Source: an uncultured Christensenellaceae bacterium
Lineage (GTDB): Bacteria; Bacillota; Clostridia; Christensenellales; UBA3700
Length of the DNA: 64,000 bases
NCBI GenBank assembly: GCA_944381365.1
Contig: CALWKW010000001.1
Span: 279,100 to 343,099 of the forward strand
Reading direction: 5' to 3'
This document shows, in pieces, positions 30,261 to 49,619 of this stretch. A program made the translations under genes and the position numbers. The notes under the pieces were generated by a model. The model saw only the letters and a program-made list of their open reading frames with translations. It was not told where the DNA came from and did no database searches. Numbering within the stretch: position 1 is the stretch's first letter; every line of letters starts with the position of its first letter.

Positions 30261-30314
30261 ACTCTATACTATGCTTTTACTCCTAAAAATTTGCTATTGC
30301 GACAAAATATTGAG

Positions 30315-30360
30315 CATAAAAAAATCGCTTCTTTGATTTTTTTGCTCAAAGAAGCGATTT
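30315..30360 (-). terminator. Intrinsic terminator closing the phage-like operon
   Basis: A 15-bp stem AAATCGCTTCTTTGA/TCAAAGAAGCGATTT followed on the minus strand by TTTTTTT. Confidence 0.85.
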
Positions 30361-30374
30361 TATGTCGTCATAAT

Positions 30375-30716
30375 TCAGACTTTGTCATTATCTGAATTTT
30401 TTTCATACTCTTTGAATGAGACATTTGTATCGTCTTTTGAAAATTCGTCTTTTTCTTCTCTATCTTCAAGAGTGCTATCTATTTTTTGAGTATCACTTAT
30501 ATCCCCCGATTCAGTCGAAACTTCGACATTCTGTTTTGAAGGATTTTTCTTGAGAATACCCGCTACCGTAAGCAAACTCAAAAATGCCATCGTGACTTCG
30601 TTTATATAAGGTATATCCACTCTTATGCTGATTGTCTGCAAAAGTACCATTACGGCACTAGCTACCGATACCCAAAATTCATAACTTTTGAGTTTTTCTT
30701 TGATGTTTTCTTTCAT
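30375..30716 (-). CDS. Holin, phi-LC3/phage_holin_1-like
   Basis: MKENIKEKLKSYEFWVSVASAVMVLLQ...LLTVAGILK has two TM segments followed by an acidic tail. AAAGGAG lies 5 nt upstream of the ATG at 30716, and there is an ATGA overlap with the upstream ORF. Confidence 0.7.
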   Translation of the reverse strand: MKENIKEKLKSYEFWVSVASAVMVLLQTISIRVDIPYINEVTMAFLSLLTVAGILKKNPSKQNVEVSTESGDISDTQKIDSTLEDREEKDEFSKDDTNVSFKEYEKNSDNDKV

Positions 30717-30955
30717 ACACACTCCTTTGTTTTCAACTTTCCTTTGCTGAGAATACTCCTCATTTCATCGTGAATCTTGTCTATATTCTTGTTCATAGTG
30801 TTCATATACGCAAGGTCCTGAGATAAAGCCGATATAGTATTCTGATATTTTACTTCTCTTGCTCTGCTGTCTTTTAATTCGAATATCAACAACACACAAA
30901 ACAACAACGCCCATATTCCGTCATCGACAGCGACTTGTACGAGCTTATCCCACAT
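30713..30955 (-). CDS. BhlA/UviB-family holin-like protein
   Basis: 80 aa. GIWALLFCVLLIFELKDSRAREVKYQNTI closely parallels the BhlA core (GPFAVLFCWLLFYV.K.SKERE.KLY) as I recall it. Confidence 0.7.
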   Translation of the reverse strand: MWDKLVQVAVDDGIWALLFCVLLIFELKDSRAREVKYQNTISALSQDLAYMNTMNKNIDKIHDEMRSILSKGKLKTKECV

Positions 30956-30964
30956 AAGTGCTTT

Positions 30965-31951
30965 TTATTGCGAAAGAATCTCAGAGGCAAGTCTTGTGTG
31001 ATACAATCCAAGATAATCTTTTAAGTCTCTATTGGCATTGAACATAATCTCCGCCACATTTTTGGGCAAAGACATATAAAAATCTCTCGCAAGCTGATAT
31101 CTTGCCTTGTAATTTTCGTCTTTTTCGCCCGTATAACCGTTTTGTTCTTCGAGGTTTTTTATTTCGAGATCATCTTTGATTCTGTTTGCCAACTGCTCTT
31201 CGATTGCCAGCAATCTCTCCTCTTTGTATTTGGCTTCTTTGGCTTTTAAATCGTTGTTGTATTTGTTGATATCGTTGATTTCTTTTTGTCTTGTTTCCAG
31301 CAATTTCTGAATTTCGCTCTCAAGCTCCTGTGCATATTTGAGATTGAGAGAGTCTATGGCGACTTTTTCTTCGTCTTTAAGTCTTTGTATTTCGGCATCA
31401 TAGCCGTTTATGTCTGAAGTCAAATCGTCTTTTATTTTCTGTGCTTCCTGTGCTTTCATTGAGTCCGCATAGTCTTCCTGACCTTGTTTTATAGACGACC
31501 TGTACATACCGTTCTGAACAAGCGAATTTTCGATTTGTTTTTTTATCTCGTCATATTCGCTGTCAAGCTTGTCATACTTTGTCTGACTTTCTGAAAGAGC
31601 ATTGTCCTTTTTTTGTTCGATTGAATCTATCTTTCCTTTGTATTCGGTATTGACTTCTTCTGTTTTGCCGCTCAACAAGTCTTCGTATTTTGAAGTAGTC
31701 TTGTCTTTTATGGTCTGTTCGTCATCGCCCTTGTATTCTTTGTAGACAAACTCTATTTCTTCCGGAAGCACATCTTCAATGTCCTCATATCCTTGACTGG
31801 GGACATAACTTTCCTTAAACTCTTCTTCCATTTTTTTGAGAGCCTCATTGAGTTCGTTTTGTTTGTCTACATAAGGCGAAATATCGGGTTTTTGTTCTTC
31901 ACCCGTAAAAAATTCTTTTACTTTTTGCTTAAAATCACTCCACCAGCTCAT
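30965..31951 (-). CDS. Phage structural protein, long coiled-coil (putative tail needle/plug or internal protein)
   Basis: 328 aa, E/K/D-rich with heptad-like repeats throughout. Strong SD (AAAGGAGAAAG). Function inferred from position only. Confidence 0.55.
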   Translation of the reverse strand: MSWWSDFKQKVKEFFTGEEQKPDISPYVDKQNELNEALKKMEEEFKESYVPSQGYEDIEDVLPEEIEFVYKEYKGDDEQTIKDKTTSKYEDLLSGKTEEVNTEYKGKIDSIEQKKDNALSESQTKYDKLDSEYDEIKKQIENSLVQNGMYRSSIKQGQEDYADSMKAQEAQKIKDDLTSDINGYDAEIQRLKDEEKVAIDSLNLKYAQELESEIQKLLETRQKEINDINKYNNDLKAKEAKYKEERLLAIEEQLANRIKDDLEIKNLEEQNGYTGEKDENYKARYQLARDFYMSLPKNVAEIMFNANRDLKDYLGLYHTRLASEILSQ

Positions 31952-32063
31952 TTTCTTTCTCCTTTATGTTTTTGCCTGAATTGTTTTGTTTCAGGGCTTT
32001 GAAATATTGTCCCAACTTGTATTTTGCAATTTCCTTTGCGATAAGTCTTAATCTTTTTGTCAT
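31935..32063 (-). CDS. Possible small basic ORF (42 aa) filling the only gap in the operon
   Basis: Manual translation gives MTKRLRLIAKEIAKYKLGQYFKALKQNNSGKNIKEKENELVE*. It starts 12 nt after the upstream stop, has a weak SD and is below the ORF-track cutoff. Confidence 0.25.
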   Translation of the reverse strand: MTKRLRLIAKEIAKYKLGQYFKALKQNNSGKNIKEKENELVE

Positions 32064-32075
32064 AAATATAGTTCC

Positions 32076-32459
32076 CTAAAGCGATAATATCGTGCTTTTT
32101 GTCAAAGCTCCCGTGAGTCTTACTCTCGAAGATGCGGTATTTGCCGAAGTCACAAACTCGAGCGTATGATACCCCTTTGGCAAATCTATCTCCTCTGAAG
32201 AAATCATACCTTTTCTTTGTGCTGCTTCTTCTCCGTCAATTCTGATGCTGCAAGTGATTTCTCCCTCTGAAGAATAATCGGGCATACATATAACTTCGCA
32301 TTCGCTTTTTCCGCCTGAAGAATAAACTTTTATGGCAAGTTCGCCTGTTTTTAAGTTTTGTTGCATGACATAATAATAAGTGTTTTTTGAGGACAATATA
32401 TGGTTTTGCAAACTTTCGCTTATCTCGTCAATCATATTTTCCATTCTCTTTATGTTCAT
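32076..32459 (-). CDS. Phage hypothetical protein (127 aa)
   Basis: GGGAGG lies 4 nt upstream of the ATG at 32459, and the ORF is tightly packed in the operon. No motif recognised. Confidence 0.55.
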   Translation of the reverse strand: MNIKRMENMIDEISESLQNHILSSKNTYYYVMQQNLKTGELAIKVYSSGGKSECEVICMPDYSSEGEITCSIRIDGEEAAQRKGMISSEEIDLPKGYHTLEFVTSANTASSRVRLTGALTKSTILSL

Positions 32460-32473
32460 TTTTCCTCCCAAGA

Positions 32474-33916
32474 CTATACCTTGTCGATAAAGTCAACTTC
32501 GAGTTTCGGCGGTCTAATATTTTCAAGATTATTGTCGCTTCTGATATAAAATACAAAACTTTGAGACTTGATATAAATGCTCTTTTTTTTCTCTTTGGGC
32601 GTCAGCAAAAACTCATGTCTTTCTCCGTCTGCGATAATGCCCAAGATATACTCATACGGCGTATTGTATTCGATAGTTCTTATGACTTTTACGCCGTTTG
32701 GCAAATCAAAATCAATCTCATTCGTCTGCCAATACTTTTGCATGGCTTTGCCAAAATAAAGACCGCTGTCATCGAGTTGGGCGACTTTGTCAAAGTCATC
32801 GGAAAGACCTATTACTCTGTTGTAATCGCTCATACTCAAAGTAATCAATCTTGAAAAACTTATGCCTCTTATGAGATTTACGCTTTTGTCGGCAAGGTCG
32901 AATATGAGCAAAATATTGTTGTCGATATCTCTTGTAAAAATGCCGTAATCGCTTGCGGCGGTATTTGTAAAAGACAATATATATTTGTGATGAGCATAAC
33001 ACGCATACACATCGTCAAATCCGCTTTTGAGCAAATCATTCGTCTTTATCGAATATCTCGACACATCGTAGCCGTCAAAAAGATATACTCCGTCTTCGCT
33101 CGCAAAAGCAATGTATTCGCCGCATTCTGTGATTGAAGGGGCAAAAATTCTTCCGCAAGAGGTATATACTTTTTTCATGGAAAATTGATTCTGGTCGGCA
33201 AAAGCCGTAAGTCTGTATATACCGTAGTCGCAGAAAATATACAGATAGTTGATAAAACTTTTTATTACTTTTACATTTCCCAAAGTTCCGTCAAAACCTA
33301 TATATCCGCCTTCATCGATAGATACATTCCAATTAAAAGGGTCAAAGTTGTCGCTAAACCAAAGGCTGTTTCGTTTACCCTTGACCACGGCATAAATTCT
33401 TTCGTTGTGGACACACAAAGCTTCGATTTGACCTTCGTATTGCACATCGCAAAGCTCGCCGTTTTTGAATACTTTTATTCCTTTTTCTCCTGAAAGAATA
33501 AGAAGATCGTCATCGTTGTAAAGATAATTGACGCCGCTTTTAAAAAAGTCTTGGCAATCGAGATGATGCCATTCTGTTTCGCCTATCGTGATATATTCAA
33601 GCCCGTTTTGATAGCTCACCGCAAGCGTGCTTTTTATCTCTCCCCCGACATTCATTTTTGTGGCAAAGAGTCTTTTGTCGCCTTCTATCTTGGGAAGAAC
33701 AGGAAGAATGGTCTCTCCCAATTTGAGCTCGTTTATTCCAAAAGAATTGACGAGTCTTCCGTTTTTAAAGCTGAAATTATATACGCAATCCACATAATCG
33801 CAAGGCAAGTTTGAAGTGAGTTTTGTTTCGTCATAACCTTTGAATCCCGAAAGCATGACCGTCTTACGCTTGGGTTTTGGAAGCGAATATTCTTTGTCGT
33901 AAAATATCATAACCAC
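32474..33916 (-). CDS. Phage structural protein, 480 aa, beta-rich repeat protein (putative tail hub, P22 gp10-position analogue)
   Basis: Recurrent aromatic/Gly beta-strand-like repeats (e.g. YLYIFCDYGIYRL, GEYIAFASEDGVYLFDG). Its position and size match the hub gene of P22-type modules. Inference only. Confidence 0.5.
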   Translation of the reverse strand: MVMIFYDKEYSLPKPKRKTVMLSGFKGYDETKLTSNLPCDYVDCVYNFSFKNGRLVNSFGINELKLGETILPVLPKIEGDKRLFATKMNVGGEIKSTLAVSYQNGLEYITIGETEWHHLDCQDFFKSGVNYLYNDDDLLILSGEKGIKVFKNGELCDVQYEGQIEALCVHNERIYAVVKGKRNSLWFSDNFDPFNWNVSIDEGGYIGFDGTLGNVKVIKSFINYLYIFCDYGIYRLTAFADQNQFSMKKVYTSCGRIFAPSITECGEYIAFASEDGVYLFDGYDVSRYSIKTNDLLKSGFDDVYACYAHHKYILSFTNTAASDYGIFTRDIDNNILLIFDLADKSVNLIRGISFSRLITLSMSDYNRVIGLSDDFDKVAQLDDSGLYFGKAMQKYWQTNEIDFDLPNGVKVIRTIEYNTPYEYILGIIADGERHEFLLTPKEKKKSIYIKSQSFVFYIRSDNNLENIRPPKLEVDFIDKV

Positions 33917-34458
33917 CTTCTCGGCTTGATTCTTATCTCGCCTTTTTTTCTTGTCGCCGTCCTCATGTCTTCTTTGAATCTTTCAGAATACATTACGGAC
34001 TGTTCATACATACCCTCGATGAGGCTGTACTCTGCACATATTCCCAAAGCAAGCGTCTTTGCACTTATGATAGGACTTATAGGACACTGTTCGTCAATCT
34101 CTATGTCCACGGGAAGATAGGTGTATTTTACGAGGGCTTTTTTTATGTCTTTGTTTTCGAGCACGCACTCTGTGGGATTCATTCTGAAATTGGTATAAAT
34201 ACCGTTTTTTACATTTTTGACGGAGAGTATTTCCAGCACTCTGTGAAGCAACTTTTCATAACTTATGTTGCCATTGTCAATCTCTACTTCCTCTGTTTCT
34301 GTGAGAGGGATATAATCTGTCGCTATCTCTTTTATGACAAGATTGGCACATTTGACCAACAATTTGAGTCTGGGGTGCTGTGCCGTTTTGTTGTTGACAG
34401 ATGCGTCCTCATCGCCGAGATATGTAAGAGATAATTGTATAGCTTCTTTTAATTCCAT
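33907..34458 (-). CDS. Phage structural protein, 183 aa (putative head-tail adaptor)
   Basis: Strong SD (AAGGAGAGAAAAATG), downstream of the MCP and overlapping the next gene by 10 nt. Function inferred from position. Confidence 0.5.
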   Translation of the reverse strand: MELKEAIQLSLTYLGDEDASVNNKTAQHPRLKLLVKCANLVIKEIATDYIPLTETEEVEIDNGNISYEKLLHRVLEILSVKNVKNGIYTNFRMNPTECVLENKDIKKALVKYTYLPVDIEIDEQCPISPIISAKTLALGICAEYSLIEGMYEQSVMYSERFKEDMRTATRKKGEIRIKPRRWL

Positions 34459-34477
34459 TTTTCTCTCCTTATGATAA

Positions 34478-34501
34478 AAGGGTGAGTGTCACCTCACCCT
34501 T
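34478..34501 (-). terminator. GC-rich hairpin inside the structural operon (partial terminator/attenuator or RNA stabiliser)
   Basis: AAGGGTGAG-6 nt-CTCACCCTT (9-bp stem) lies in the 49-nt gap after the 104-aa gene. It is followed on the minus strand by only a short T stretch. Confidence 0.45.
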
Positions 34502-34507
34502 ATGGGA

Positions 34508-34822
34508 CTAAAGTCCTATGCCGCTCATTGTCTTTTCAAACAAATTTTTCATATACTCTTGTTCTTGTCGAATATTTTGTTGTTCGATTTCTTTTAATAT
34601 GCGTTCTTTGTTTTTTACTTCGCTCTTCAGCGTATAGTCTACGGCTCTTTTGTCGAGAGTTTTGTATGGAAAAGTGAGCTGATAAGAAGGATGACTTTTT
34701 GTATTGTGAAGCTCATAGCTTTTCGTATCCCCGTTGAAGTATATTTTGTAGTCTGCGTCAATACTCTTTATCCGATTGGCTATGTCAAACAAATCATCTT
34801 TTATCTCTATCAACTTTTCCAT
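34508..34822 (-). CDS. Phage hypothetical protein (104 aa; possible decoration/head-completion protein)
   Basis: Start moved to the internal ATG (MEKLIEIKDDLF...) because the 184-aa version overlaps the MCP gene. Coiled-coil-like C-terminus. Confidence 0.5.
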   Translation of the reverse strand: MEKLIEIKDDLFDIANRIKSIDADYKIYFNGDTKSYELHNTKSHPSYQLTFPYKTLDKRAVDYTLKSEVKNKERILKEIEQQNIRQEQEYMKNLFEKTMSGIGL

Positions 34823-34908
34823 ATTTATCCCTCTTTTTCCGTATGACTCTCTTTTTATACAAATGCAAATGCTTTTAATCGATTGACAAAATTTATCGAC
34901 AAAAAATG

Positions 34909-36081
34909 TTATTGAGCGGTAATACCCGAAAGCTTTGCCTGACCGATAGGCTTGTCGCAAATCATATCGGCATACTTGACGAGTGTAGCACTGTATGTCG
35001 CACTGCCCGCTTTTTGCTTGATTACCTTGCCGTTGTCGCCCTCGAGCCATCTCCAATCGCAAAGCTGATGCAACTTGAAGTCCTGACTGTTGAGCAAATA
35101 CATCGTACCCTTTTCTACAAATCTGTCTGCGATAAGAGGAATACCGTTGTAGGACAAAGCCTTAAAACCTCCGTCAAGATTCATATAGTCGATATTGGTA
35201 CGAGTGAGAGCAAGATAGTCGAGATATGCTCTTCTTACATCATACGAGCATACGATAAAGTCAATCTGACTTCCCGCTACTTCATCGATATAGTCGATTG
35301 CACTCTGAATTTTTGCGGTAGAGATAGCACCCGTATTTGCATAATGTTTGGGCTGCAACCAGCTTCTGCCCTCTCTCGACAAACCGTAAAGCTCCTTGTC
35401 TGAGAATATAGCTCCAAGACCTGTGAGTTCGTTTTCCTTTGAGCCCTGAACCGTAACGGTATCGCCGTCCTGAATGCTCGAAGACACGCTTGCTGCCACG
35501 GTAATTGTATCGTTTACTCTGTCTACTGCGGTAATTCTTACGCCCTTGAGGTCGCTATAAACATTGCCGTTTGATTTTGCATAGACATCGATTACCATAC
35601 CTTCCATGACATTGCGTACGCTGTCCACTTTGATAGTATTTGCTGTCGAGCCTTCGGCAGAACATGTAGCCAATACGCCGCTTCCGTCTCCGTACAACAT
35701 TCTTCCGAGATTGAACTTGGAAGCTTTGAGCAAGCCTTCCATTTCTGCATTGAGAAGGTTTACGAATGCACCGGTATTTGACTGAGATGCTCTGATTGCC
35801 TTGTCTGACAACTCGATAGTACCATAAAGGTTTTTAAGTTCGAGCTTGAATCTGTCATAGTTGTTTGCTGCGGGAACAGGCAATTCGCCGCTTTCTGTAC
35901 CGGCTCCTATACCGCCGTTGATGCCATAGGGTACGAGCTTGATGATTTCCTTACCCCATACATCAGAGGTAGTCTGTTGTATTTTTGCCAAAAGTGGATT
36001 GACGCCTACATTGAGTTGGTCTGCCACTACATTCAAATAGACACTTTTCAGTGCCTTTTCTGCTGTTTCTAATGTTACCAT
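34909..36081 (-). CDS. Phage major capsid protein (HK97-fold type)
   Basis: 390 aa. The N-terminal pattern ...KSVYLNVVADQLNVGVNPLLAKI...GKEIIKLVPYG... and the G-rich E-loop-like region are typical of MCPs. AGGAGG SD, TAATG overlap with the scaffold-like gene, and position after portal and scaffold. Confidence 0.8.
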   Translation of the reverse strand: MVTLETAEKALKSVYLNVVADQLNVGVNPLLAKIQQTTSDVWGKEIIKLVPYGINGGIGAGTESGELPVPAANNYDRFKLELKNLYGTIELSDKAIRASQSNTGAFVNLLNAEMEGLLKASKFNLGRMLYGDGSGVLATCSAEGSTANTIKVDSVRNVMEGMVIDVYAKSNGNVYSDLKGVRITAVDRVNDTITVAASVSSSIQDGDTVTVQGSKENELTGLGAIFSDKELYGLSREGRSWLQPKHYANTGAISTAKIQSAIDYIDEVAGSQIDFIVCSYDVRRAYLDYLALTRTNIDYMNLDGGFKALSYNGIPLIADRFVEKGTMYLLNSQDFKLHQLCDWRWLEGDNGKVIKQKAGSATYSATLVKYADMICDKPIGQAKLSGITAQ

Positions 36082-36716
36082 TATATCCTCCTGTTGTTGA
36101 GCATAGTTGTGATTACTGCCCCCGCCTCTGCTATGCTCTTAGGTCTCGAAGGCGGAGTGAGTGTGATTTGTCCTCTGGAAGTTATGGACTTTGGCGGCAT
36201 AGTCTTTTGCAATCCGTCAAGATATTCATCGACTATGTTTTGTCTGATGCTTTCGTTGGGGTAAATATATTCTTTGATAAAGTTTTCGTCCCCTGCAAGC
36301 TGCTGAGGCGATACATATTGTTTGCACAATACTCTCAACAAAGCGATTTCAAGACAATTATCTTGTCTTTGCAAGGCTTTATCAGAGATTATTTCATTCC
36401 CGATAGCATTGGCAAATTGCTTTGCCAAAGGATAGGTGCTCAAAAAAGCATTGACTTTGTCCTGCCAATCTTCTTTGTCAAATACCGCTTTTTCTTCTTT
36501 TTCAGGAGTGTCTGAAGTTTGCTCCTCTTCATTCTCGGTATTTTCGTCTGTGGTCAAAGGATTTTGTCTTTGCTCTTTGGTATCTTCTTTGATTTCAGTT
36601 TCCAAAGTCTCATTTTCTTCCTGAGAAGGTATATCTAAGGCTTCCTTGATCGTTTCTTCGGAAGCGGGTTGGGCTTGGTTTTGCGTTTGCTGTGTATTTT
36701 TATCTTTCTTTTTCAT
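36081..36716 (-). CDS. Putative scaffolding protein
   Basis: 211 aa with a very acidic low-complexity N-terminus, located between the portal and MCP genes. Positional inference. Confidence 0.5.
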   Translation of the reverse strand: MKKKDKNTQQTQNQAQPASEETIKEALDIPSQEENETLETEIKEDTKEQRQNPLTTDENTENEEEQTSDTPEKEEKAVFDKEDWQDKVNAFLSTYPLAKQFANAIGNEIISDKALQRQDNCLEIALLRVLCKQYVSPQQLAGDENFIKEYIYPNESIRQNIVDEYLDGLQKTMPPKSITSRGQITLTPPSRPKSIAEAGAVITTMLNNRRI

Positions 36717-38574
36717 ATTGCTCCTCTGTCTTTTGCAAACCGTCTGTCATGAGTTTTGCAAGTTTATGCTGTTTGATATGCTCGTCTAGCAAGGCTTTGA
36801 GTTTTTCGTCTTTGAGTTCGAGCAAAGCTTTGAGATGCTCTTCTATGTGCAAATCGTGGTCGTCATAATCCGCTACCTTCAAATCTTTCTTTCCCGTTTC
36901 GAGATTTTCTTTGAGAGCTTTTTTGCGATGACTCTCGTCTACATCTCTGCCCGACTCCCAGTTGCCGAATCCCAAAATCTCAAGTATCTTGACTTTGTTT
37001 CTTGGCGATATCTCTCCGTTTTCGCCATTGAAAATACCCATGCTCACCAAGTCAAGCACCATCTTTCTTCTGTTTTCCAAAGTATCTGTAAGCTCGTTTT
37101 CGTTGTCAAACACAAGGTCATCGCTTCTCAAATCGCTTGCCGTAAAATATGCAAGTTCTACTTCTCCGTTGTCTCCCGAAAATCTCTTTACTCTCTTTGT
37201 CGTGCAATATTGCTTATAAAGTCTCAGCATTTGCTCGCATATATGTTTGACTGCGTTTCTCAACGAATTCGTAGCAATGCTCAATCTCGTATCGTCCTGC
37301 TCGACCAAAAGTCCTATCGCTTTACCTGACAATTGATTGTAGACATTTGAATATTTGCTCAATTCGCTTACGCCCGACATGGTAGTAAACTCTGAGAGTA
37401 TTCTCTCTTCTTCATACTGAAAGTCCGCAGGCACTTGTCCCACTTCCAAAAGTCTGGGCGGAGTCGAGCCTTGTCTGTATATGAGTACTTTTCCTGGGGA
37501 AAGTCCCTCTTCTTCGAGATTGTCGGTATCTATCGAGCCGTCCTCAATAGTCATTACTCCCATGGCAAGTCTGTTCATAAACTCGTGTTTTCTGTTTTTG
37601 ACGGCATTGTATGCTCTTTGCAAAGGTATAAGTCTTTCGATTATGCTCGTGCCGTAAAAACAGCCTATTTTGTCAAGACATATCGTCTTTGTAAAAGGAT
37701 AACCTCTTTGCTCGTTTTCCTGATTTATATACGGCAAATCGCCATAATACACAAGCTGATCTCCAGCTACGATTATGAGTTCGCCATTGGGTTTTTCCGA
37801 TGTGGGACGGCAATATTTTTCTATCACGATACACATATCGTGAGCCACGCTGTCTATCATATTGGGAAAACTTGCGTCATATCCGAGTCCGCCGCCTATC
37901 TGTGCATTGTCGAGAGAAAAGACATTGACATCTTCGCCTTTTACCTCTATGCCCCATATATCCTTTACTTCGTCCACATGATATGCTTTTGCGTGTATAA
38001 TGCTTTGACAATCGTTGATATCCGAAGTAGTAAGGCTGTCGGGAAAAATCTCATAAGGCGGCACGACAGTGACTTCCACATCTCCTTCTTTTACTGCCTT
38101 TTTGTTTTTTGCAAGTCCGATTACTCTTCCCTTGTCTGCCGACCATACCGTTTTGAAAAAACAAGTTCCCGTGACTTCGCTCCAAGTGCTTGCCACATTG
38201 AGCAAAGACGCTATTTTGTTTTCTTCGCAAAGTGCTTTGACAATCTGCGTAGAAAGTTTTGCAGTATGCACATCGCTGTCATCGCTGCTGAAAGGTCTTA
38301 CGCTCACGCCGCATTTGAGTCTGTTGAGTTTTGCAAGACGGGTTTCTACGATTGATGCAATATGGTTGTACACCTCACGCTCTTGCCAGAAATATTGTTT
38401 GCCATACTGTTCGATATCGCCTACGGGAGAAATCTCGGCATATTGATTGCCGTTGTAGAAATTCATATTGAGACGCCACTGAAGCTCGAGAGGTTTTCTT
38501 TCTTCTCTTCTGCGTTGATAATCCTTTCTTACCTCATTGACGATATCTTCTTTGAATTTATCATCTTTTATCAT
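36700..38574 (-). CDS. Phage portal protein
   Basis: 624 aa. The N-terminal LELQWRLNMNFYNGNQY motif is typical of portal proteins. It follows terL. Confidence 0.85.
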   Translation of the reverse strand: MIKDDKFKEDIVNEVRKDYQRRREERKPLELQWRLNMNFYNGNQYAEISPVGDIEQYGKQYFWQEREVYNHIASIVETRLAKLNRLKCGVSVRPFSSDDSDVHTAKLSTQIVKALCEENKIASLLNVASTWSEVTGTCFFKTVWSADKGRVIGLAKNKKAVKEGDVEVTVVPPYEIFPDSLTTSDINDCQSIIHAKAYHVDEVKDIWGIEVKGEDVNVFSLDNAQIGGGLGYDASFPNMIDSVAHDMCIVIEKYCRPTSEKPNGELIIVAGDQLVYYGDLPYINQENEQRGYPFTKTICLDKIGCFYGTSIIERLIPLQRAYNAVKNRKHEFMNRLAMGVMTIEDGSIDTDNLEEEGLSPGKVLIYRQGSTPPRLLEVGQVPADFQYEEERILSEFTTMSGVSELSKYSNVYNQLSGKAIGLLVEQDDTRLSIATNSLRNAVKHICEQMLRLYKQYCTTKRVKRFSGDNGEVELAYFTASDLRSDDLVFDNENELTDTLENRRKMVLDLVSMGIFNGENGEISPRNKVKILEILGFGNWESGRDVDESHRKKALKENLETGKKDLKVADYDDHDLHIEEHLKALLELKDEKLKALLDEHIKQHKLAKLMTDGLQKTEEQYEKER

Positions 38575-38789
38575 TGTTCGCCTCTTCCTTTGTTTCTCAT
38601 ATAAATATTCTTGGGGCTTTTGGGTACAAGGATTTTTGAGGTAGCGTCATAAAGATTTTGCATACAATCCTTGCAGAGATTGATATATCGGCTTTTGTCC
38701 ACGCCGTCAGGTACGACAGAATAATCTGCCATATTGGTGCAAACGCCCATATCGCATTTAAGTTTGTTTGTCTGAATTACTATCTTCAT
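38571..38789 (-). CDS. Small Cys-rich phage protein (72 aa, possible zinc ribbon)
   Basis: AAGGAG lies 6 nt upstream of the ATG at 38789. Cys pairs CDMGVC and CKDC. ATGA overlap with the portal gene. Confidence 0.5.
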   Translation of the reverse strand: MKIVIQTNKLKCDMGVCTNMADYSVVPDGVDKSRYINLCKDCMQNLYDATSKILVPKSPKNIYMRNKGRGEQ

Positions 38790-39057
38790 TTTTCTCTCCT
38801 TTTGTCATATCGTTTAGCTGAGAAATCAGCCTGAATTTTAGTTGTTCGAGCTGTTCATCGCTCAAGGCGGTAATATCATCGGTCTTGTCGATACCGAGTT
38901 CGACCATAGTTTTGACGGCGGTCATATCGGGAGGATAATGTTTGAGACTGACTTTTCTTTTCAAAAGTTCGTTGTCGCCCGAATATTCCTCTACTATTTC
39001 CTGAATATCATAGCCGACCGCCTTGCGATAAACGGCCTTTTCTATTTCTTCATTCAC
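38758..39057 (-). CDS. Small phage protein (99 aa), possible terminase small-subunit-like/DNA-recognition protein
   Basis: GTG start with GGGAGG 5 nt upstream. The KHYPPDMTAVK segment resembles the PPD motif I recall in some TerS proteins. Weak evidence. Confidence 0.4.
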   Translation of the reverse strand: MNEEIEKAVYRKAVGYDIQEIVEEYSGDNELLKRKVSLKHYPPDMTAVKTMVELGIDKTDDITALSDEQLEQLKFRLISQLNDMTKGEKNEDSNSDKQT

Positions 39058-39077
39058 TTTTTCCTCCCTTGAGAGAG

Positions 39078-40505
39078 TTATATTTTTTGCCGTTTATTAA
39101 GTTGTTTTATAAGTTTTTGTTTATCTTTTTGTATTATGGTGGGCTTTAAGGAAGGAAGTTTTGTCGCTTTTGGTTTTGTACATAGATAATAACGGAGGGC
39201 ATCGAGTGCGTGGTCATCTTTTTTTATCGGTTTATCTCCCTTTCCCCACCAATAAGTTTTGAGTTCTCTTATAAGGTTTGTACAATTTGAAAATATCTTG
39301 ATTTTGTCTTCTGAAAAAAAACTTTTGACCTGAGCTATACCCGAAAAAAGCTGTTTGTTGACATTTGTATTGACGAGTATGTTTCTGTCATAAAAAAGTT
39401 CTGATACGCTTTTTTGACTTGCGAGAGTATGCTGATCCGCCGCACTGTCTATGAGTGCCGACAATCTTCCTTTTCCGTCTCTGTGCCAATTAAGTTTTTG
39501 AGCAAGTTCGTGAATTTTTTCTGCGTGATAATCTATGTCCTTTCCCGCCATATACCATTCCCCAACCACATACACGGTTCCGTCATAGTCCACCGCAAAA
39601 AACAAACACGCCAAAGGATTGTTGAGTCCCGGGTCGATAGAGATATTGTCCTGCCATTCAAAAGGGATATCAAAAGGCTCTATGACATGTCTGTTTTGGT
39701 CAAATTCTTTATAGACAATGCCTTCTGCCTCGCAAAATCTTCCGAATCTTCTCGAAGCAAGCGTATCTTCGTCAAGGCATTTAGAAAGAGCGTCAACCTC
39801 ATTTTTGTCAAGAAAAGGATTGTCCGCCCACTCTATATGTTCGTGCCATGTTTCATCGTCTTGTTTTGAATTGAGATATATCTCGTCATACACCCAAGTC
39901 AGTCCTTTTAGAGGTGTCATTGTGCCCCACACTTCGCCTCGTCTGTCCAAAACTCTCATTCTGCATTCGTCATAAATATCCTTTGGCGGCTCTTCGTCAA
40001 ACCACACAAAGTCAAGCGATGTTCCCTGAAATTTTTCTCTGCCTTGGTCACAGCTCTTAAAAGATATTTTGGACACTCCGCCAAATATGTTTTTTATGAG
40101 AATATAATCTATAATTCCGTATTCGGCAGATGCTTTTTTGCCTGACGACATTACAATATCTTCTATCCAATCGGGATTGAGATAACTCAAAAACTTGCTT
40201 TGAGCGACATCTCTTTGCACCTCATAAGACAAAGATACTATCCAGCCCGACACATTTTTTCTGTTTTGTCTGTACGGATGAATTCCTCTCGCCCACCATA
40301 CCGCTTCTACAGCTCCGCACTCTGTTTTTCCGCTTCTGTTTCCGCCAAAAACCCACCTGTTTCTTTTTTGACATTTATGGAATATGAGTTGTTTTTCATG
40401 GACTTTTTCGCCTGTATTATAATGCGATAATTTATCTCCCGCCTGCCTTCTTGCCTGTTCTTTTTCTATGGCTAGAATTCTTCCGAGTATTTGCTTTTCT
40501 GTCAT
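39078..40505 (-). CDS. terL: Phage terminase large subunit
   Basis: 475 aa with Walker A FGGNRSGKT, Walker B LDFVWFDEEP and a C-terminal RNaseH-like nuclease region (D-rich motifs). Confidence 0.9.
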   Translation of the reverse strand: MTEKQILGRILAIEKEQARRQAGDKLSHYNTGEKVHEKQLIFHKCQKRNRWVFGGNRSGKTECGAVEAVWWARGIHPYRQNRKNVSGWIVSLSYEVQRDVAQSKFLSYLNPDWIEDIVMSSGKKASAEYGIIDYILIKNIFGGVSKISFKSCDQGREKFQGTSLDFVWFDEEPPKDIYDECRMRVLDRRGEVWGTMTPLKGLTWVYDEIYLNSKQDDETWHEHIEWADNPFLDKNEVDALSKCLDEDTLASRRFGRFCEAEGIVYKEFDQNRHVIEPFDIPFEWQDNISIDPGLNNPLACLFFAVDYDGTVYVVGEWYMAGKDIDYHAEKIHELAQKLNWHRDGKGRLSALIDSAADQHTLASQKSVSELFYDRNILVNTNVNKQLFSGIAQVKSFFSEDKIKIFSNCTNLIRELKTYWWGKGDKPIKKDDHALDALRYYLCTKPKATKLPSLKPTIIQKDKQKLIKQLNKRQKI

Positions 40506-40608
40506 AATTCGTCATAATAAATCCACAATTTTTGATATATTGAACAAAATTGTATTGTAAAAATAATAAAATTAGAATATAATTAATATATTACTTAGCG
40601 AGGTTTGT

Positions 40609-41361
40609 ATGAAAAAACTTATACTTGTCACATTGCTTCTTGCCATGCTCATTGTACCCTGCATAAGCTGCGGTACTGCTTTGGCTGAAGAAGACGGAAA
40701 TATCTATTATTACACAGCGAGCGAAATCCCCGTGTTTTCCGACACACAAGGCGGAACTCCTCTTTACTATATCCCTTCGACCTATGCCTATAAATTTTTG
40801 AGCGAAGTACAAGACAGCGATTATATCAAAATCGAGTACAACGGCAAAGAAGGATATATCAAAAAAGACCGCCACAAAAAAGAAAATCAGGTAAAACTCG
40901 ATTGGAAAGACACTTATTACTACAACTTTACTTTCAGTATTACTCCCGAAATCGTCACTTTGTACAAATCATCTGACATAAACGCTTCGGGACAATATGT
41001 AAAAAGCTCTGTTGCTATCAACAAGGTTTACGGATACACCTATACCCTCAAAGATAATGTAAAAGAATTTTATTTTCTGATAGAGTTTACCAGCAATGAA
41101 GTAAAGGACACAAGGTATGTCAAAGCAAGCGATACCACATTAAGCGGATTCACATTGGACGAGATTCCTCAGAATGAGTATTATTTGCAAGAGATTACTC
41201 CCGAAACTCCAAGCGGCGATACCGATACCGGCAATACTGACGGCATCCAAGAGCCTACAAACAATCTCGAAAGATATCTTCTTATCACCGTAATAGCCGT
41301 ATTGTGCGTAATCATTGTGGTATTAATTTTTATTCCAAACAAGCACCGCAAAAATAACTGA
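40609..41361 (+). CDS. Secreted, C-terminally membrane-anchored protein with SH3b-like domains
   Basis: Signal peptide MKKLILVTLLLAMLIVPCISC, SH3-like segments (...DYIKIEYNGKEGYIKK...) and a C-terminal TM (LLITVIAVLCVIIVVLIFI) followed by a basic tail. Confidence 0.55.
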   Translation: MKKLILVTLLLAMLIVPCISCGTALAEEDGNIYYYTASEIPVFSDTQGGTPLYYIPSTYAYKFLSEVQDSDYIKIEYNGKEGYIKKDRHKKENQVKLDWKDTYYYNFTFSITPEIVTLYKSSDINASGQYVKSSVAINKVYGYTYTLKDNVKEFYFLIEFTSNEVKDTRYVKASDTTLSGFTLDEIPQNEYYLQEITPETPSGDTDTGNTDGIQEPTNNLERYLLITVIAVLCVIIVVLIFIPNKHRKNN

Positions 41362-41376
41362 CATAATTTTTTGCAT

Positions 41377-41408
41377 AAAAAAAGCCGTAGCAATACGGCT
41401 TTTATTCT
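41377..41408. terminator. Bidirectional intrinsic terminator
   Basis: AAAGCCGTA-gcaa-TACGGCTTT is flanked by an A-run and a T-run, between convergent genes. Confidence 0.85.
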
Positions 41409-41427
41409 TTTCGCCAAAATATTTATT

Positions 41428-42003
41428 CTAAATCATTGCACTGCTCTCAGCTTTTGCCTCCGATGCCATTGCCACATTTGCCATAGCACAGACAAATTGT
41501 TTTGTCTTGTTGTCGCAGGTATTTGCTTTGACAAGAGAATTTTTTTGAAGTTGAGCCATATTGACTTCGTTGAGTCTTATGAACAGGCTGTCTCTTGCAT
41601 ATCTTTTTTCCAGCCACGCTTCGTCATACCCTTTTGCTCTCAATATTGCCGAAAAAGATTTTATGGCAAAAGCATATCTTCTGAAGACAGTCCTAAGGCA
41701 TATTCCCAAAATATCTGCGATGTCTTCAAAACTTTTTTTGTCTATGTACTTCATTTCGAGGATCTGCCTGTATTTGGGTTTGAGGTCTGCAAGAGTGGTG
41801 TCCACAATCACTTTTGCGTTTATCAAAGCCTCCTTGCGTTTGTTGTTGTCGATAATTTTTTGCATAAGGTCTAATGTGTTGCCCGCATAGGAAAAACTGC
41901 CAAGAGCCATAGTCATTGTGTAAGAATCTATCGATTTGACTATCTTTGGCAAAATCCTATAAGATGCGAGAAGACTTTTGGACCACATCTCTTGATTCAT
42001 CAT
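41428..42003 (-). CDS. Sigma-70 region-4-type HTH regulator (ArpU/DUF1492-like phage late-gene activator candidate)
   Basis: YRQILEMKYIDKKSFEDIADILGICLRTVFRRYAFAIKSF is a region 4.2-like HTH. Start set at the ATG at 42003 (GGAGGTGAT upstream). Confidence 0.6.
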   Translation of the reverse strand: MMNQEMWSKSLLASYRILPKIVKSIDSYTMTMALGSFSYAGNTLDLMQKIIDNNKRKEALINAKVIVDTTLADLKPKYRQILEMKYIDKKSFEDIADILGICLRTVFRRYAFAIKSFSAILRAKGYDEAWLEKRYARDSLFIRLNEVNMAQLQKNSLVKANTCDNKTKQFVCAMANVAMASEAKAESSAMI

Positions 42004-42073
42004 ATCACCTCCGTTTACACTCAAAGTATATTACAAAGGGTTAGGGAAAATCAATCTTTTATGACAATATTTT

Positions 42074-42087
42074 TGAACATTTGTTCA
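42074..42087. promoter_or_regulatory. SOS-box-like palindrome TGAACATTTGTTCA (GAAC-N4-GTTC)
   Basis: A perfect 6-2-6 palindrome 71 nt upstream of the regulator start. It matches 11/14 positions of the Firmicutes LexA consensus CGAACATATGTTCG. An extra TGTTCA half-site lies at 42095-42100. Confidence 0.35.
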
Positions 42088-42240
42088 TATTTTTTGTTCA
42101 CATTCCTCAAACAATCACATATCCAAAAAAATTCAAAAATTTGATTTTGAATTGCATTTTTATCTCAAAAACCTTTTTGGGGCATTTAAATCTATAAATA
42201 AATTTGTTTATTATTCTTAAAATATTCAATATCTTTTGAT

Positions 42241-42327: not shown

Positions 42328-44805
42328 TCAGTCTATTATATTGTGTCTTTTTGCGTCTCCGATAGTCATGATATTTTTGTCTTTTGACACTATCTTTATG
42401 ATATTCTTGCCTTTGTTTGCTCTGTCTTCGATACCTATCTGTTCGGTATTTATGCTCTTCACTTCGCCGTTTGGCAAGACGATAGCAAAATCATAAGGAG
42501 TCGTCACGACATCAATGAATACGCACTCGCCTATCTTGTTGTCGAATATTTTGTTGCCTTTTGCCATTCTCATTCTGGGTTCGATAGTGCCGAGTATAAT
42601 TCTCTTTGCGTATCCGCTGTCCATTACCAAGACTATTTCGCCGCTTGCGTCTGTGTGCGTAGCAAAAATAAGTTTGTCGTCATCATCGAATCTCATGAGT
42701 TTTACGCCGCTTGCCTTTCTGCCTTGCGTGGGAATATCGTCATAACTTGTAAGTGCCATGCCGTTTTGCGTAACAGACAAGATAAAGCCTCTTGCCTCTC
42801 TCGTTCCGTCATCGACTTCGGGCGGAGTCACAAGTTCGACCGCAACAAGTCTGTCGTCTTCGTCCTTGAAAGCCATTGCATTCGTCAATGATTTTTTGTC
42901 AAAAGTAAATTCCTCGAGATCGACATATTTTGCCATACCCATCTGTGTTATGAGCAAAAGCTTTTTGCCCTTGACTTCGCTTTCTGTAAATATCTGAACA
43001 AGTATGTCATCGCTGTCTACCTTGGCAAATTTGTTTACGCTTATGCCTCTGCTCTTCCACTTATCCTCTCCTAGAGCCGATACGGGGAATGTCACGGCAT
43101 TGCCTTTTGATGTGATACCAAAGAGCATTGCTTCGCTGTCAGTCTTTATTACCTTCTTGGACAAGTCTTGTGCATTGCAGTTGACGATACTCTTGGATGC
43201 GAGGTTGTATCCTTTGTCAAGCACGAATTTGATATTGCCGTTGTAATGCAATACTACAAAACCTTCTTTCTTGATTTTTGCGTTGAGGTCTACTTCTACA
43301 TCTGCGATAAGACTTTCGTGAATGATTTCGCTTTGTCTAGGCGAAGGATATTTCTTCTTGATTTCCAAAAGCTCTTTTTTGACCACATTGTATTGTTTTG
43401 TCTTAGAATTGGTGATACCCGTAAGATATTTTATCTTTTCCATCAATTCTTTTTGTTCTTCGAGCATCTTGTTTATATCGAGCTTGTTGAGTCTTTTGAG
43501 AGGTATATCCAATACGGCAATCGCTTGTTTTTCCGTAAGGTCAAATCTCATTCTCAATCTGTCTTTTGCTTCGGTATAAGTCTTGCTGTCAAGCACTATA
43601 TCCACTACTTCTCTGATGTTGTTTACGGCTTTGAGAAGACCTTCGAGAATATGCTCTCTCTTTTCTGCCACATCGAGGTCGTACTTGCTTCTTTTATAAA
43701 TGACTTCTCTTTGGAATTCTACATAATGCTTTATTATGTCCAAAAGTCCCAGCTGCATAGGACGATTGTTGACGATTGCGGTCATATTCGCACTGAAGTT
43801 TGTTTGCAAATCCGTCTTTTTGAGAAGGAGGGCTATCATAGTATCGACATCTGCTTCTTTTTTGAGCTTGATTACACAACGCATACCCGTTCTGTCGCTC
43901 TCGTCTACGATGTCCTGTATGTTGCCAAACAAATCTTTGTTGATATCTCTAAGTTCGTTTATTCTGCTGAGCAAACTTGCTTTGTTTACCTGATAAGGGA
44001 TTTCTGTTATGACAATATTTGTTCTGCCGCCCTCGTCTTCGGTATGAATTTTTGCTCTTACGACAATTTTTCCTTTGCCGGTAGAATATGCGTCATAAAT
44101 ACCTTGGTTGTCCACGATAATTCCGCCCGTGGGAAAATCGGGGGCAGGAATATATTTCATCATCTCTTCCAAAGATATGTCTTTGTTTTCGATATAAGCC
44201 ACTATACCGTCAATGGCTTCGCCTAGATTGTGAGGCGGGATATTTGTGGCAAGGCCTACTGCAATACCGTTGGCTCCGTTGACAAGCAAATTGGGCACCC
44301 TGCTCGGCAAGACTTCAGGCTCTTCGAGGCTGTCGTCAAAGTTGAGCATCATAGGAACGGTGTCTTTGTCGAGATCCCTCAGCATTTCGAGTGCAAAAGG
44401 CGTCATTCTCGCCTCTGTATATCTCATTGCCGCAGCACTGTCGCCGTCCACGCTACCAAAGTTTCCGTGTCCGTCTACCAGCAACATCTTTGTATTGAAA
44501 GGCTGTGCGAGCTTTACCATTGCACCATACACCGAGCTGTCTCCGTGAGGGTGATATTTACCAAGACAATCACCGACAATACGGGCAGACTTACGATGAG
44601 GCTTATCCGGAGTGGTGCCAAGCTCAAGCATTGTATAAAGAATTCTTCTTTGTACAGGCTTTAATCCGTCTTCTACTCTCGGCAATGCTCTGTCGAGTAT
44701 TACATACTCGCTGTAAGGGAGCATGGAATCATGCAGTACCTGTTCAAATGTACCGTCAATGATTTTGGAATTGTCTACTTCTTCTACCTTTTTGTTTTTT
44801 GCCAT
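42328..44805 (-). CDS. parC: Type IIA topoisomerase subunit A, ParC-like (topoisomerase IV)
   Basis: 825 aa with [19 protein letters not shown] and the active-site AAMRYTE motif. I could find no GyrA-box (QRRGGKG) in the C-terminal domain, which favours ParC over GyrA. Confidence 0.7.
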
Positions 44806-44899
44806 ATTAATCCCTGTATGTATTTTGAGTATCCGACTTTATACATAGTATAAAAATCGTACTTTCTTTTTAATTGAATCAAAGCTGAATATCTATGTA

Positions 44900-46891: not shown

Positions 46892-47025
46892 ATTTCTTCC
46901 TATAAAATTCCGAAAAATCGGTTCGCCCAAAGGCATTTGCTCAGTATTAATATATCAATTTTGATAAGCTATGTTTGTAATTAAGCTATTTTATAATTAT
47001 GTATCTTGACATGCTTTTTTCGATT

Positions 47026-47994: not shown

Positions 47995-48142
47995 AATATT
48001 TCCCCCAACAAAATTATACATATACATTATATAGTATAATTACAAATTTTTCAACCCCAATTATTGTGTTTTTGTCAACTTTTTTAATATTTAATATTTA
48101 AAAACTCTTTAAAATCAGCTTATATTAAGATAATTTATTATT

Positions 48143-48157
48143 TTGAACATTGTTCAA
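48143..48157. promoter_or_regulatory. Palindrome copy 1: TTGAACATTGTTCAA (7-1-7)
   Basis: A perfect 15-bp inverted repeat in the 520-bp hydrolase/murG intergenic region. Confidence 0.4.
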
Positions 48158-49593: not shown

Positions 49594-49619
49594 TTACTAA
49601 AATAATCTACATCCACTAA

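Follow-up and report, generated by a model that had tools for sequence, protein, structure and literature searches.

A chromosomal, phage-derived cassette of podovirus build in Christensenellales, a probable gene-transfer-agent-like element

Results

The stretch of DNA analysed here (the window, 64 kb in full length) carries a cassette made up of a minus-strand operon, running from terL to two holin genes, and an upstream regulator region. Every ORF listed in the initial annotation is present on the minus strand at the coordinates given there, and family matches agree with its terminase, portal, major capsid protein (MCP) and holin assignments. That list overlooked two genes, encoding a sigma-70 region-4/DUF1492-like regulator and a divergent membrane protein, both of which accompany the cassette in other genomes. 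Gene callers start the 480-aa ORF two codons later, for a product of 478 aa, and choose a start for the last holin that gives 113 aa. Features are listed below in window coordinates.

30317-42086, whole cassette
28908-30260, flanking gene murC
30317-30360, minus strand, intrinsic terminator ending the operon, 15-bp stem AAATCGCTTCTTTGA / TCAAAGAAGCGATTT and then a T-run
30375-30722, minus strand, second holin, two hydrophobic segments and a charged tail (phrog_297, E 1e-8)
30713-30955, minus strand, BhlA-family holin (PF10960, E 2.5e-13)
30965-31951, minus strand, DUF7934 coiled-coil protein, 328 aa (PF25588, E 7e-43)
31935-32471, minus strand, variable slot with a 127/131-aa protein (32076-32471) and a 42-aa ORF (31935-32063)
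32474-33916, minus strand, predicted tail nozzle, beta-propeller hub, 480 aa (AlphaFold model, Foldseek)
33907-34458, minus strand, predicted head-to-tail adaptor, 183 aa (AlphaFold model, Foldseek)
34508-34822, minus strand, 104-aa protein, conserved in the same slot in 75 loci
34909-36081, minus strand, MCP of podovirus type (NF033394, phrog_14242)
36081-36716, minus strand, acidic scaffold-like protein, assigned by composition and its slot between portal and MCP
36700-38574, minus strand, portal of P22/SU10 type (PF16510 P22_portal, E 1.4e-26; PF23899; phrog_156)
38571-38789, minus strand, 72-aa Cys-rich protein, positionally conserved in 46 loci
38758-39057, minus strand, 99-aa short TerS-like protein (phrog_309, terminase small subunit)
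39078-40505, minus strand, large terminase TerL (Terminase_6N/6C; phrog_2)
40609-41361, plus strand, divergent 250-aa protein with N-terminal signal sequence, SH3-like region and C-terminal TM segment
41428-42024, minus strand, sigma-70 region-4/DUF1492-like regulator (PF08281, E 3e-10; PF07374; phrog_36)
42025-42054, minus strand, promoter-like -35/-10 of the regulator gene, TTGATT-18-TATACT (consensus scan)
42075-42086, no strand assigned, LexA-type (Cheo) box GAACAAATGTTC, 5' of the regulator gene
42328-44805, flanking parC-type topoisomerase IV/gyrase subunit A gene

The operon encodes a complete DNA-packaging head, consisting of TerL, the short TerS-like protein, portal, scaffold and MCP. 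The Walker A and Walker B motifs, the coupling motif and the three nuclease Asp residues of TerL are 100% conserved across 67 orthologues. Orthologues of the 99-aa protein match phrog_309 in 47 of 51 cases, within profile positions ~195-240 of 319 only; the N-terminal part of the profile has no counterpart in this protein. The MCP matches NCBIfam model NF033394 (capsid_maj_Podo) with E 2e-82 and phrog_14242 with E 8e-59. The scaffold-like protein is conserved in its slot in 69 loci, and a family search returned no match for it. Family searches likewise gave nothing beyond a weak phrog_16583 match for the 72-aa protein, and no informative match for the 104-aa protein, which may be a head or neck accessory.

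Behind the head genes, the operon encodes a minimal short tail (adaptor and nozzle), the virion-type coiled-coil DUF7934 protein and the two holins. The suggestion that the 183-aa and 480-aa proteins are of P22 gp4 and gp10 class is borne out by structure prediction. The model of the 183-aa protein (pLDDT 88.6) shows a podovirus head-to-tail adaptor fold, with Foldseek matches to adaptors of KHP30, phicrAss001, SU10, DEV, Pa223, N4 and T7 gp11 (E down to 3e-7, TM up to 0.70). That of the 480-aa protein (pLDDT 87.5) shows a podovirus tail nozzle fold, matching the nozzles of Pa223 (E 5e-20), VP1 (TM 0.77), SU10, GP4 and T7 gp12; a profile match to the SU10 tail protein 7z47_G (E 8e-4) was also obtained. 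The slot between nozzle and DUF7934 varies by locus, being empty or holding either a ~120-aa protein or one of 280-436 aa, and a Pfam search of these proteins returned no match. The DUF7934 protein, E/K-rich with a conserved C-terminal region, closes the structural block in 64 loci; against PDB profiles it gave only coiled-coil noise. BhlA-family proteins are annotated in PHROGs (phrog_2429) as "bacteriocin production or immunity", while the orthologue of the second holin in one related locus weakly matches PF04531 (Phage_holin_1). The strong terminator described before murC was identified by eye, the consensus scan having missed it.

Upstream of the operon lies the sigma-70 region-4-like regulator gene with a conserved LexA-type operator, to which LexA would be expected to bind. 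The regulator matches phrog_36 (transcriptional regulator) with E 5e-15, and its true start is likely the ATG at 42003, behind GGAGGTGAT. A Sigma70_r4_2 protein occupies the same position in 12 of 28 genomes (27 related loci plus the present window). The box is the single match to GAAC-N4-GTTC in the whole window. Exact matches occur upstream of the regulator in 24 of the 33 loci where a regulator is detectable; 31 of 57 loci have one at a distance of 1.3-2.2 kb upstream of terL, compared with 12 matches in the remaining ~1 Mb; two further loci have a version with one mismatch, and a control region inside the cassette has no exact box. Related loci keep the promoter hexamers, downstream of the box and a TTGGCAC motif. 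Two observations count against an SOS reading: the box is missing in 23 of 57 loci, mostly from a more distant clade, and it does not overlap the promoter, lying ~20 nt upstream of the predicted -35. An opposite-strand ORF of 245-340 aa stands directly upstream of terL in most loci, and three proteins from the two upstream gene positions have SH3_3 matches.

The cassette is non-mobile and carries no integration or replication functions. Domain searches of the interval and of the rest of the window found no integrase, replication, protease, tape-measure or endolysin domain, in agreement with the initial annotation. Its broader statement, that every gene needed for an autonomous phage is lacking, passes over a late-type regulator that is retained. 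Neither the cassette nor the window yielded a recognisable receptor-binding protein, fibre or tailspike, needle or endolysin, so that adsorption, DNA delivery and lysis are unaccounted for.

More than 6000 MCP homologues were found, on chromosomal contigs of up to 700 kb, and screening a collection with a single genome for each species yielded 551 confirmed matches, all of them beside housekeeping genes. Gene order is the same in 82 of 82 distinct related genome loci, over which MCP identity is 60-91%. The 125 ORFs taken from the flanks of 26 loci have housekeeping functions (among them murG, RNase J, pseudouridine synthase, gyrB-type and tRNA synthetases), with no integrase or recombinase among the recurrent families, and the wider neighbourhood (AMP-binding, murG, hydrolase, parE/parC) is kept at only 60-70% ParE identity. 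MCP identity follows host ParE identity (Spearman rho 0.885, p 1e-4).

Purifying selection acts on the cassette in hundreds of species. Values of dN/dS are 0.04-0.4 for every computable gene, small ORFs included (0.17 for the regulator, 0.15 for the divergent protein), and are rough because even the comparison with the nearest species has saturated dS. The dN of MCP, portal and TerL is 0.065-0.10 (MCP 0.065 against the nearest species), similar to parC at 0.072, while murC is higher at 0.235. Occurrence solely inside complete prophages had been named as grounds against the initial annotation; the relatives on IMG/VR viral contigs are pieces of the same chromosomal cassette and no complete phages, and no att-like direct repeats were found here. 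Two relatives are disrupted, L124 with a truncated terL and adjoining serine recombinases, L134 with a restriction-type island in place of the tail genes, which indicates that the element can be lost.

Discussion

We consider the Christensenellales cassette to be, probably, a chromosomally fixed, vertically inherited, phage-derived element of podovirus build that resembles a gene transfer agent (GTA), a "viriform". It is apparently switched on by DNA damage, to judge from the operator motif. The initial annotation had left three candidates standing, and the comparative evidence favours the GTA-like one over a satellite or a truncated prophage.

Its remark that a GTA of podovirus type would be unusual has been overtaken. 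Such particles, described only recently in gut bacteria, are no longer without precedent because of FpGTA of Faecalibacterium prausnitzii (PMC12946183, Nat Commun 2026; bioRxiv 2024.11.15.623857), the closest precedent. FpGTA particles are ~40 nm and hold ~9 kb of DNA each, nanopore reads of the packaged Faecalibacterium DNA being 8.4-8.9 kb and seemingly random chromosomal fragments (PMC12946183). GTA-type packaging of 4-7 kb fragments was also reported there for Christensenellaceae MAGs, for which the locus was not found (PMC12946183).

The two systems share a gut Clostridia host, a podovirus-like build, the lack of integrase and replication genes, and a ~10-kb operon of TerL, portal, scaffold-position protein, MCP, small proteins and tail nozzle, followed by an abundant E/K-rich protein (annotated "TolA" in FpGTA). 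The FpGTA TerS lacks an evident DNA-binding domain, and the near-ubiquity of FpGTA in its host genus is a further likeness. They differ in that here the TerS-like gene comes after terL, no Prp-annotated protein lies between portal and MCP, the holin genes are part of the operon rather than lying at a second locus, the operon comes with a regulator that has a LexA-type box, and no fibre, receptor-binding protein or endolysin operon was seen within 64 kb. The MCPs probably belong to separate lineages, judged by family annotation and not by sequence: that of FpGTA is annotated as N4-gp56 family, whereas the one here matches NF033394 and not TIGR04387. FpGTA is experimentally supported, whereas the Christensenellales cassette is known from its genes alone. 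RcGTA-type elements of Alphaproteobacteria are alike in having a head-tail cluster without integration or replication genes, vertical inheritance and slow evolution; a truncated TerS, an activator of their own and additional genes at other loci are likewise expected (Lang & Beatty 2000; Craske et al. 2024). They differ in their siphovirus-type tail, prohead protease and other capsid lineage, and in control by CtrA, quorum sensing and GafA, where the cassette has a sigma-like protein linked to a LexA box; the two are unrelated in sequence.

In the mechanism we propose, removal of LexA, by DNA damage or another signal, would derepress the regulator, which in some of the cells would activate the operon from terL to the holins. 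Procapsids would assemble on the portal with the scaffold, and TerL with the TerS-like protein, which lacks the usual N-terminal part, would pack chromosomal DNA by headful cutting with no preference for the cassette. Adaptor and nozzle would then seal the portal, the holins would permeabilise the membrane, and an endolysin or autolysin encoded elsewhere would finish lysis and release the particles. These might deliver DNA to recipients, as a true GTA does, or serve another population-level role.

The alternative that deserves most attention, although we think it unlikely, is a defective-phage particle like PBSX of Bacillus subtilis, packaging DNA but selected for something other than gene delivery; its advantage might lie in killing competitors, in the programmed lysis of a subpopulation, or in setting free DNA or cell contents after DNA damage. 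PBSX is likewise a Gram-positive, chromosomally fixed, DNA-damage-inducible particle (inducibility being predicted here), and it packs host DNA fragments, of 13.4 kb. The shared logic of an SOS-linked switch, a sigma-like late activator (Xpf in PBSX, Sigma70_r4 here) and a holin-ended late operon fits, as do the bacteriocin annotation of BhlA-family proteins and the failure to recognise a receptor-binding protein, and the FpGTA authors too allow that their particles may not deliver DNA. In PBSX it is Xpf that drives the operon ending in holin genes. PBSX differs, however, in its myovirus-like contractile tail, killer particle, Xre repressor and own lysin; the short, nozzle-only tail here lacks the contractile or membrane-piercing machinery behind PBSX and tailocin killing, TerL scores 60 bits against a cut-off of 105 bits for the PBSX terminase family, and the packaging functions, none of which lysis alone would need, are all strictly conserved.

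Helper dependence is conceivable for an element with its own capsid and packaging genes and no fibres or endolysin, and the late-activator-type regulator lies immediately upstream of the packaging genes here, an arrangement found in many Firmicutes phages and satellites. A horizontally moving, helper-phage-dependent satellite of the cf-PICI kind, or other mobile element, is nevertheless very improbable: integrase, excisionase, replication and primase genes and att repeats were not found, the cassette itself encodes an adaptor and a nozzle, while cf-PICIs use helper tails, housekeeping genes flank it in 26 loci, and capsid divergence follows host ParE divergence within a conserved neighbourhood. 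Every gene is phage-derived and damage is visible in the two disrupted relatives, yet a functionless remnant of a recently truncated or decaying prophage is extremely unlikely given that the complete gene set and order are kept over 82 loci whose MCPs are as little as 60% identical, that dN/dS lies far below 1 for every gene, small ORFs among them, and that the TerL catalytic residues are invariant. The cassette is intact, as had been proposed from its unbroken frames.

Podovirus modules of P22/SU10/Pa223/VP1 type match the cassette in portal family and in the folds of adaptor and nozzle. Among cultured phages the nearest are Microbacterium phage Shocker and Arthrobacter phage Jasmine, with MCP identity to cultured phages at just 25-30%. 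Unlike the cassette, these two have autonomous genomes of 45 kb that include genes for replication, lysis and fibres. In Shocker, too, the terminase gene is followed by two small ORFs, portal, scaffold-position gene and MCP, and Shocker gp33 gives a weak match to the nozzle profile (E 9e-4).

Gene content of the cassette

The cassette is a minus-strand operon that runs from the large terminase gene (terL) to two holin genes between murC and parC, spanning 30317-42086 when its regulator region is included. Every open reading frame listed for this interval in the initial annotation is present, on the minus strand and tightly packed, and the terminator placed there before murC is confirmed. The list was incomplete by two genes within the interval it covered, one encoding a regulator and one a 250-aa protein; these are the last two features below.

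Features of the cassette in the window, with family matches
Minus strand: large terminase (terL), Terminase_6N/6C
Minus strand: portal of P22 type, PF16510 (E 1.4e-26)
Minus strand: major capsid protein (MCP), phrog_14242 (E 8e-59) and NCBIfam NF033394 'capsid_maj_Podo' (E 2e-82, 277 bits)
Minus strand: 328-aa protein, PF25588 (DUF7934), coiled-coil and rich in E/K, its C-terminal region conserved
Minus strand: BhlA holin, PF10960
Minus strand: second holin, phrog_297
30317-30360: terminator closing the operon, 15-bp stem and T-run
40609-41361, plus strand: divergently transcribed gene whose 250-aa product has a signal sequence and, at its C terminus, a membrane anchor
41428-42024, minus strand: sigma-70 region-4/DUF1492-like regulator, PF08281 (E 3e-10) and phrog_36 (E 5e-15)

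The flanks of the cassette are murC and a parC/parE-type topoisomerase pair, and the genes around it in the 64-kb window are ordinary housekeeping genes. Domain scans of the cassette and of the whole window found nothing there that resembles an integrase, replication protein, prohead protease, tape measure, fibre or endolysin. For two minus-strand reading frames in the window, 52984-54009 (341 aa) and 54428-55414 (328 aa), Pfam records no family; their neighbors are housekeeping genes (DegV, PAP2).

Virion proteins identified by structure and profile

An AlphaFold model of the 480-aa protein, built from an alignment of database homologues, is all-beta and confident (pLDDT 87.5). In the PDB, Foldseek matches it best to podovirus tail nozzles, namely those of Pa223 (E 5e-20), VP1 (TM 0.77), SU10 and GP4, with further matches to the phicrAss001 muzzle and to T7 gp12; the sequence profile of the protein also reaches the SU10 tail protein. 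The model of the 183-aa protein (pLDDT 88.6) matches podovirus head-to-tail adaptors from KHP30, phicrAss001, SU10, DEV, Pa223 and N4, as well as T7 gp11. The structural roles suggested for these two proteins from gene order and size are thereby supported, with adaptor and nozzle folds recovered by AlphaFold and Foldseek. Together with the P22-type portal (PF16510), the adaptor fold and the beta-propeller nozzle fold match the portal, dodecameric-adaptor and nozzle components of the virion module of P22/SU10-type podoviruses. From the assigned folds and families, therefore, the products of the cassette make up a head, a packaging motor and a tail core of portal, adaptor and nozzle.

The 99-aa protein appears to be a short relative of small terminases, with a match to phrog_309 (TerS) in 47 of 51 orthologues, limited to positions ~195-240 of the 319-position profile. 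A comparison of its profile with gp18 of phage Shocker by hhalign gave no similarity. Profile searches against PDB sequences returned no match for the MCP or the adaptor, and the matches they returned for DUF7934 and the 99-aa protein were rejected as coiled-coil or repeat noise. In sequence searches for a tail needle or plug and for a tailspike or fibre, DUF7934 gave coiled-coil noise and the proteins of the variable slot, which lies between the nozzle and DUF7934 genes, gave no match; Pfam found nothing in ten of these slot proteins. Family searches that included the slot proteins recognized no receptor-binding protein in the cassette. Across 58 loci, the slot (31935-32471 in the window) is empty (~100-150 nt) or encodes a protein of either ~115-135 or 280-436 aa; a component of host range or of the tail tip would fit both where it lies and how much it varies.

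Distribution, synteny and descent

Homologues of the MCP number more than 6000 at E<=1e-5, largely from metagenome-assembled genomes of Clostridia and Christensenellales, on contigs of up to 700 kb, and at 50% identity the family falls into 2731 clusters; naming of distant cluster representatives brought up neither Faecalibacterium nor any other named host. Scanning a collection with one genome for each species gave at least 551 confirmed matches, of which the best 80 show 60-91% identity. MCP identity to the nearest cultured phages is only 25-30%. Microbacterium phage Shocker shares the head-gene order of the cassette, but carries it inside a 45-kb autonomous genome.

The order terL, 99-aa gene, 72-aa gene (Cys-rich product), portal, scaffold, MCP, 104-aa gene, adaptor, nozzle, variable slot, DUF7934, holins is kept in all 82 distinct related genome loci. 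Upstream of terL, most loci have a small regulator gene on the plus strand and a membrane-protein gene on the minus strand; a recognizable Sigma70_r4_2 protein occupies the regulator position in 12 of 28 genomes (27 related loci plus the window). The 125 open reading frames surrounding 26 of the loci are housekeeping genes, with no recurrent integrase or recombinase family among them. A direct-repeat search found no att-like repeats flanking the window copy. Its best pair (30301-30324 and 41360-41383, 83%) was rejected as an att site because the regulator would fall outside, and the remaining candidates are imperfect, A/T-rich chance pairs.

Genomes whose ParE is only 60-70% identical have the cassette in the same wider neighborhood (AMP-binding enzyme, murG, hydrolase, parE/parC) and on the opposite side of the murG-to-parC block, a placement indicating old residence and local rearrangement. 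In genomes at 70-76% MCP identity (window 42328-51834 compared with the related loci L001 and L004), the cassette sits between murG and a gene for either a CDP-alcohol phosphatidyltransferase or a pseudouridine synthase. The window has the cassette and regulator between parC and murC, while the L001 and L004 copies lie beyond the murG-hydrolase-parE-parC block.

MCP and ParE identities rise and fall together (rho 0.885, p 1e-4). In comparisons with the nearest species, all genes that allowed a dN/dS estimate gave values of 0.04-0.4, these ratios being rough because dS is saturated. Values of dN for MCP, portal and TerL (0.065-0.10) are comparable to that of parC (0.072) and below that of murC (0.235). 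Across 67 orthologues, TerL keeps its Walker A, Walker B and coupling motifs and all three nuclease aspartates unchanged. Gene order, the MCP-ParE correlation and dN/dS point to vertical inheritance across the host clade under purifying selection, as expected of a gene transfer agent (GTA). The same expectation extends to content: the head, tail and packaging genes of phage origin that make up the cassette reside in the chromosome, and the scans found no integration, excision or replication module with them.

The regulatory region

The palindrome GAAC-N4-GTTC, the Cheo box of Firmicutes and as such a form of the LexA operator, has a single match in the 64-kb window, GAACAAATGTTC at 42075-42086, upstream of the regulator gene; alone, this match is not significant. 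An exact box is found upstream of the regulator in 24 of the 33 loci with a detectable regulator; in 31 of 57 loci one lies 1.3-2.2 kb upstream of terL, and two more loci have a one-mismatch box at the same place. The rest of those 57 loci (~1 Mb) contains 12 matches, with GC-rich spacers, and an equally large control region within the cassette contains no exact box. The box is absent from the more distant clade. We infer a possible link of the regulator to the SOS response, which would extend by way of the regulator to the operon; having both regulator and operator defined points to DNA damage as a candidate inducing condition.

Downstream of the box are a conserved TTGGCAC motif and then -35/-10-like hexamers. 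The motif, TTGTCAT in the window (42055-42074), lies just downstream of the box and is followed by TTGAT/TTGCA, as seen at the equivalent positions of related loci L016-L025, L037, L041, L054 and L081. An additional TTGACA...TGTCA inverted repeat follows in L039, L041, L054 and L081. The TTGGCAC ... TTGC/TTGA motif resembles a sigma-54 -24/-12 pair, but at 11 rather than 10 its GG-to-GC spacing is one base too long, and the sigma-54 reading was rejected on that ground. Between terL and the membrane-protein gene, the divergent intergenic region (40506-40608 in the window; 18 loci) has a conserved TATATTATA-like motif, AATTATATTCTAA in the window, that could be a -10 element in either direction or a target of the sigma-like regulator.

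Comparison with the Faecalibacterium gene transfer agent

The closest described system is the Faecalibacterium gene transfer agent, FpGTA, an operon of ~10.5 kb that includes a nozzle and an abundant 'TolA'-annotated protein (PMC12946183). FpGTA particles measure ~40 nm and hold ~9 kb of DNA, and nanopore reads (8.4-8.9 kb) of the Faecalibacterium DNA inside map to the chromosome as fragments of seemingly random origin (PMC12946183). With FpGTA gene order taken from the locus tags and annotations in the proteomics table of that paper, both systems show the order TerL, portal, scaffold-position gene, MCP, ..., nozzle, ..., E/K-rich abundant protein. They differ in five respects. The cassette MCP falls in NF033394, whereas the FpGTA MCP (RCH50849.1) is annotated as N4-gp56 family, and TIGR04387 gave no match to the window MCP at E<=0.01. 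The TerS-like gene differs in position, and the cassette lacks a Prp-annotated gene, keeps its holins within the main operon and has the regulator attached. The cassette and FpGTA are therefore probably separate lineages, set apart by annotation and gene layout. The 64-kb window has no second operon like that of FpGTA (fibre, receptor-binding protein, holin, endolysin).

GTA-type packaging was also reported for two Christensenellaceae metagenome-assembled genomes, with peaks near 4.1/7.1 and 6.3 kb and the gene cluster not identified (PMC12946183). These fragments of 4-7 kb lend indirect support to the packaging that a GTA would show, with host DNA taken up almost at random and each piece too short for the full gene set. 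Look-ups linked none of our loci to the species reported to package in this way: JAIDUT corresponds to GCA_029060065 rather than QANA01 sp019420265, and two prevalent MCP variants led to other assemblies.

Interpretation

The cassette appears to hold what a DNA-filled, short-tailed particle would need, with nothing for the replication or movement of a phage or satellite, and in evolution it behaves like a host gene cluster. Particle genes present, mobility absent and host-like evolution fit a GTA-like domesticated particle, the origin favored here among the three that the initial annotation had proposed. Gene content and host-like evolution argue against the others, a satellite and a decaying prophage remnant. 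A capsid-forming PICI or phage satellite would be expected to use helper tails, yet the cassette has its own adaptor and nozzle, and no integrase, replication gene or att repeat came from the domain scans, the flanks of 26 loci or the direct-repeat search. A PBSX-like role, with lysis or killing and no transfer, is less likely: the score with the PBSX-family terminase model TIGR01547 is 60 bits, below its cut-off of 105, and the cassette has no sheath or tube genes for a contractile tail of PBSX type.

The cassette is probably a GTA-like element, for which podovirus-type precedent already exists in FpGTA. We tentatively propose that it may represent a second podovirus-type GTA family, probably domesticated separately from FpGTA (judged by capsid family), fixed across Christensenellales and related gut Clostridia, SOS-wired through a LexA box and sigma-like activator, and forming the missing basis of the 4-7 kb host-DNA packaging by Christensenellaceae in human stool.

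Very few lineages have known GTA gene clusters, and in present studies of gut virus-like particles GTA-type packaging is seen but cannot be assigned to named loci. A conserved, easily recognized cassette offers a marker for predicting GTA-type producers in metagenomes, and a compact system of 16 genes offers a testbed for the packaging, and possibly delivery, of host DNA by podovirus-type particles. Christensenellales are widespread in the gut. The family Christensenellaceae is consistently linked to metabolic health (PMC10865807).

Relatives on viral contigs

Relatives in IMG/VR are short fragments of the same cassette, with no complete phage among them. Loci L096-L138, all from this source, are chromosomal cassette copies, mostly fragments of 4-19 kb starting at terL; one (L137) has the host genes parE and parC upstream. 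Since IMG/VR lists chromosomal copies as viral contigs, virus-detection pipelines count the cassette as virus, and users of such pipelines should be aware of this scoring.

Two of these contigs depart from the usual layout. On L134 (5986-12763; IMGVR_UViG_3300010163_003556) the cassette ends after the MCP and is followed by a WYL-domain regulator, a C-5 cytosine methylase, a HATPase_c_3 protein and an Mrr_cat-ResIII helicase, so that a restriction/defence-type island occupies the expected place of the neck and tail genes. On L124 (1383-7263; IMGVR_UViG_3300029711_000209) terL is cut down to a 176-aa reading frame. Directly upstream are two large serine recombinases (Resolvase+Recombinase+Zn_ribbon_recom) and an Mtd_N-domain protein, and the host genes 2-Hacid_dh and RNase J lie downstream, an arrangement suggestive of a mobile element that entered the cassette terminase gene or landed beside it.
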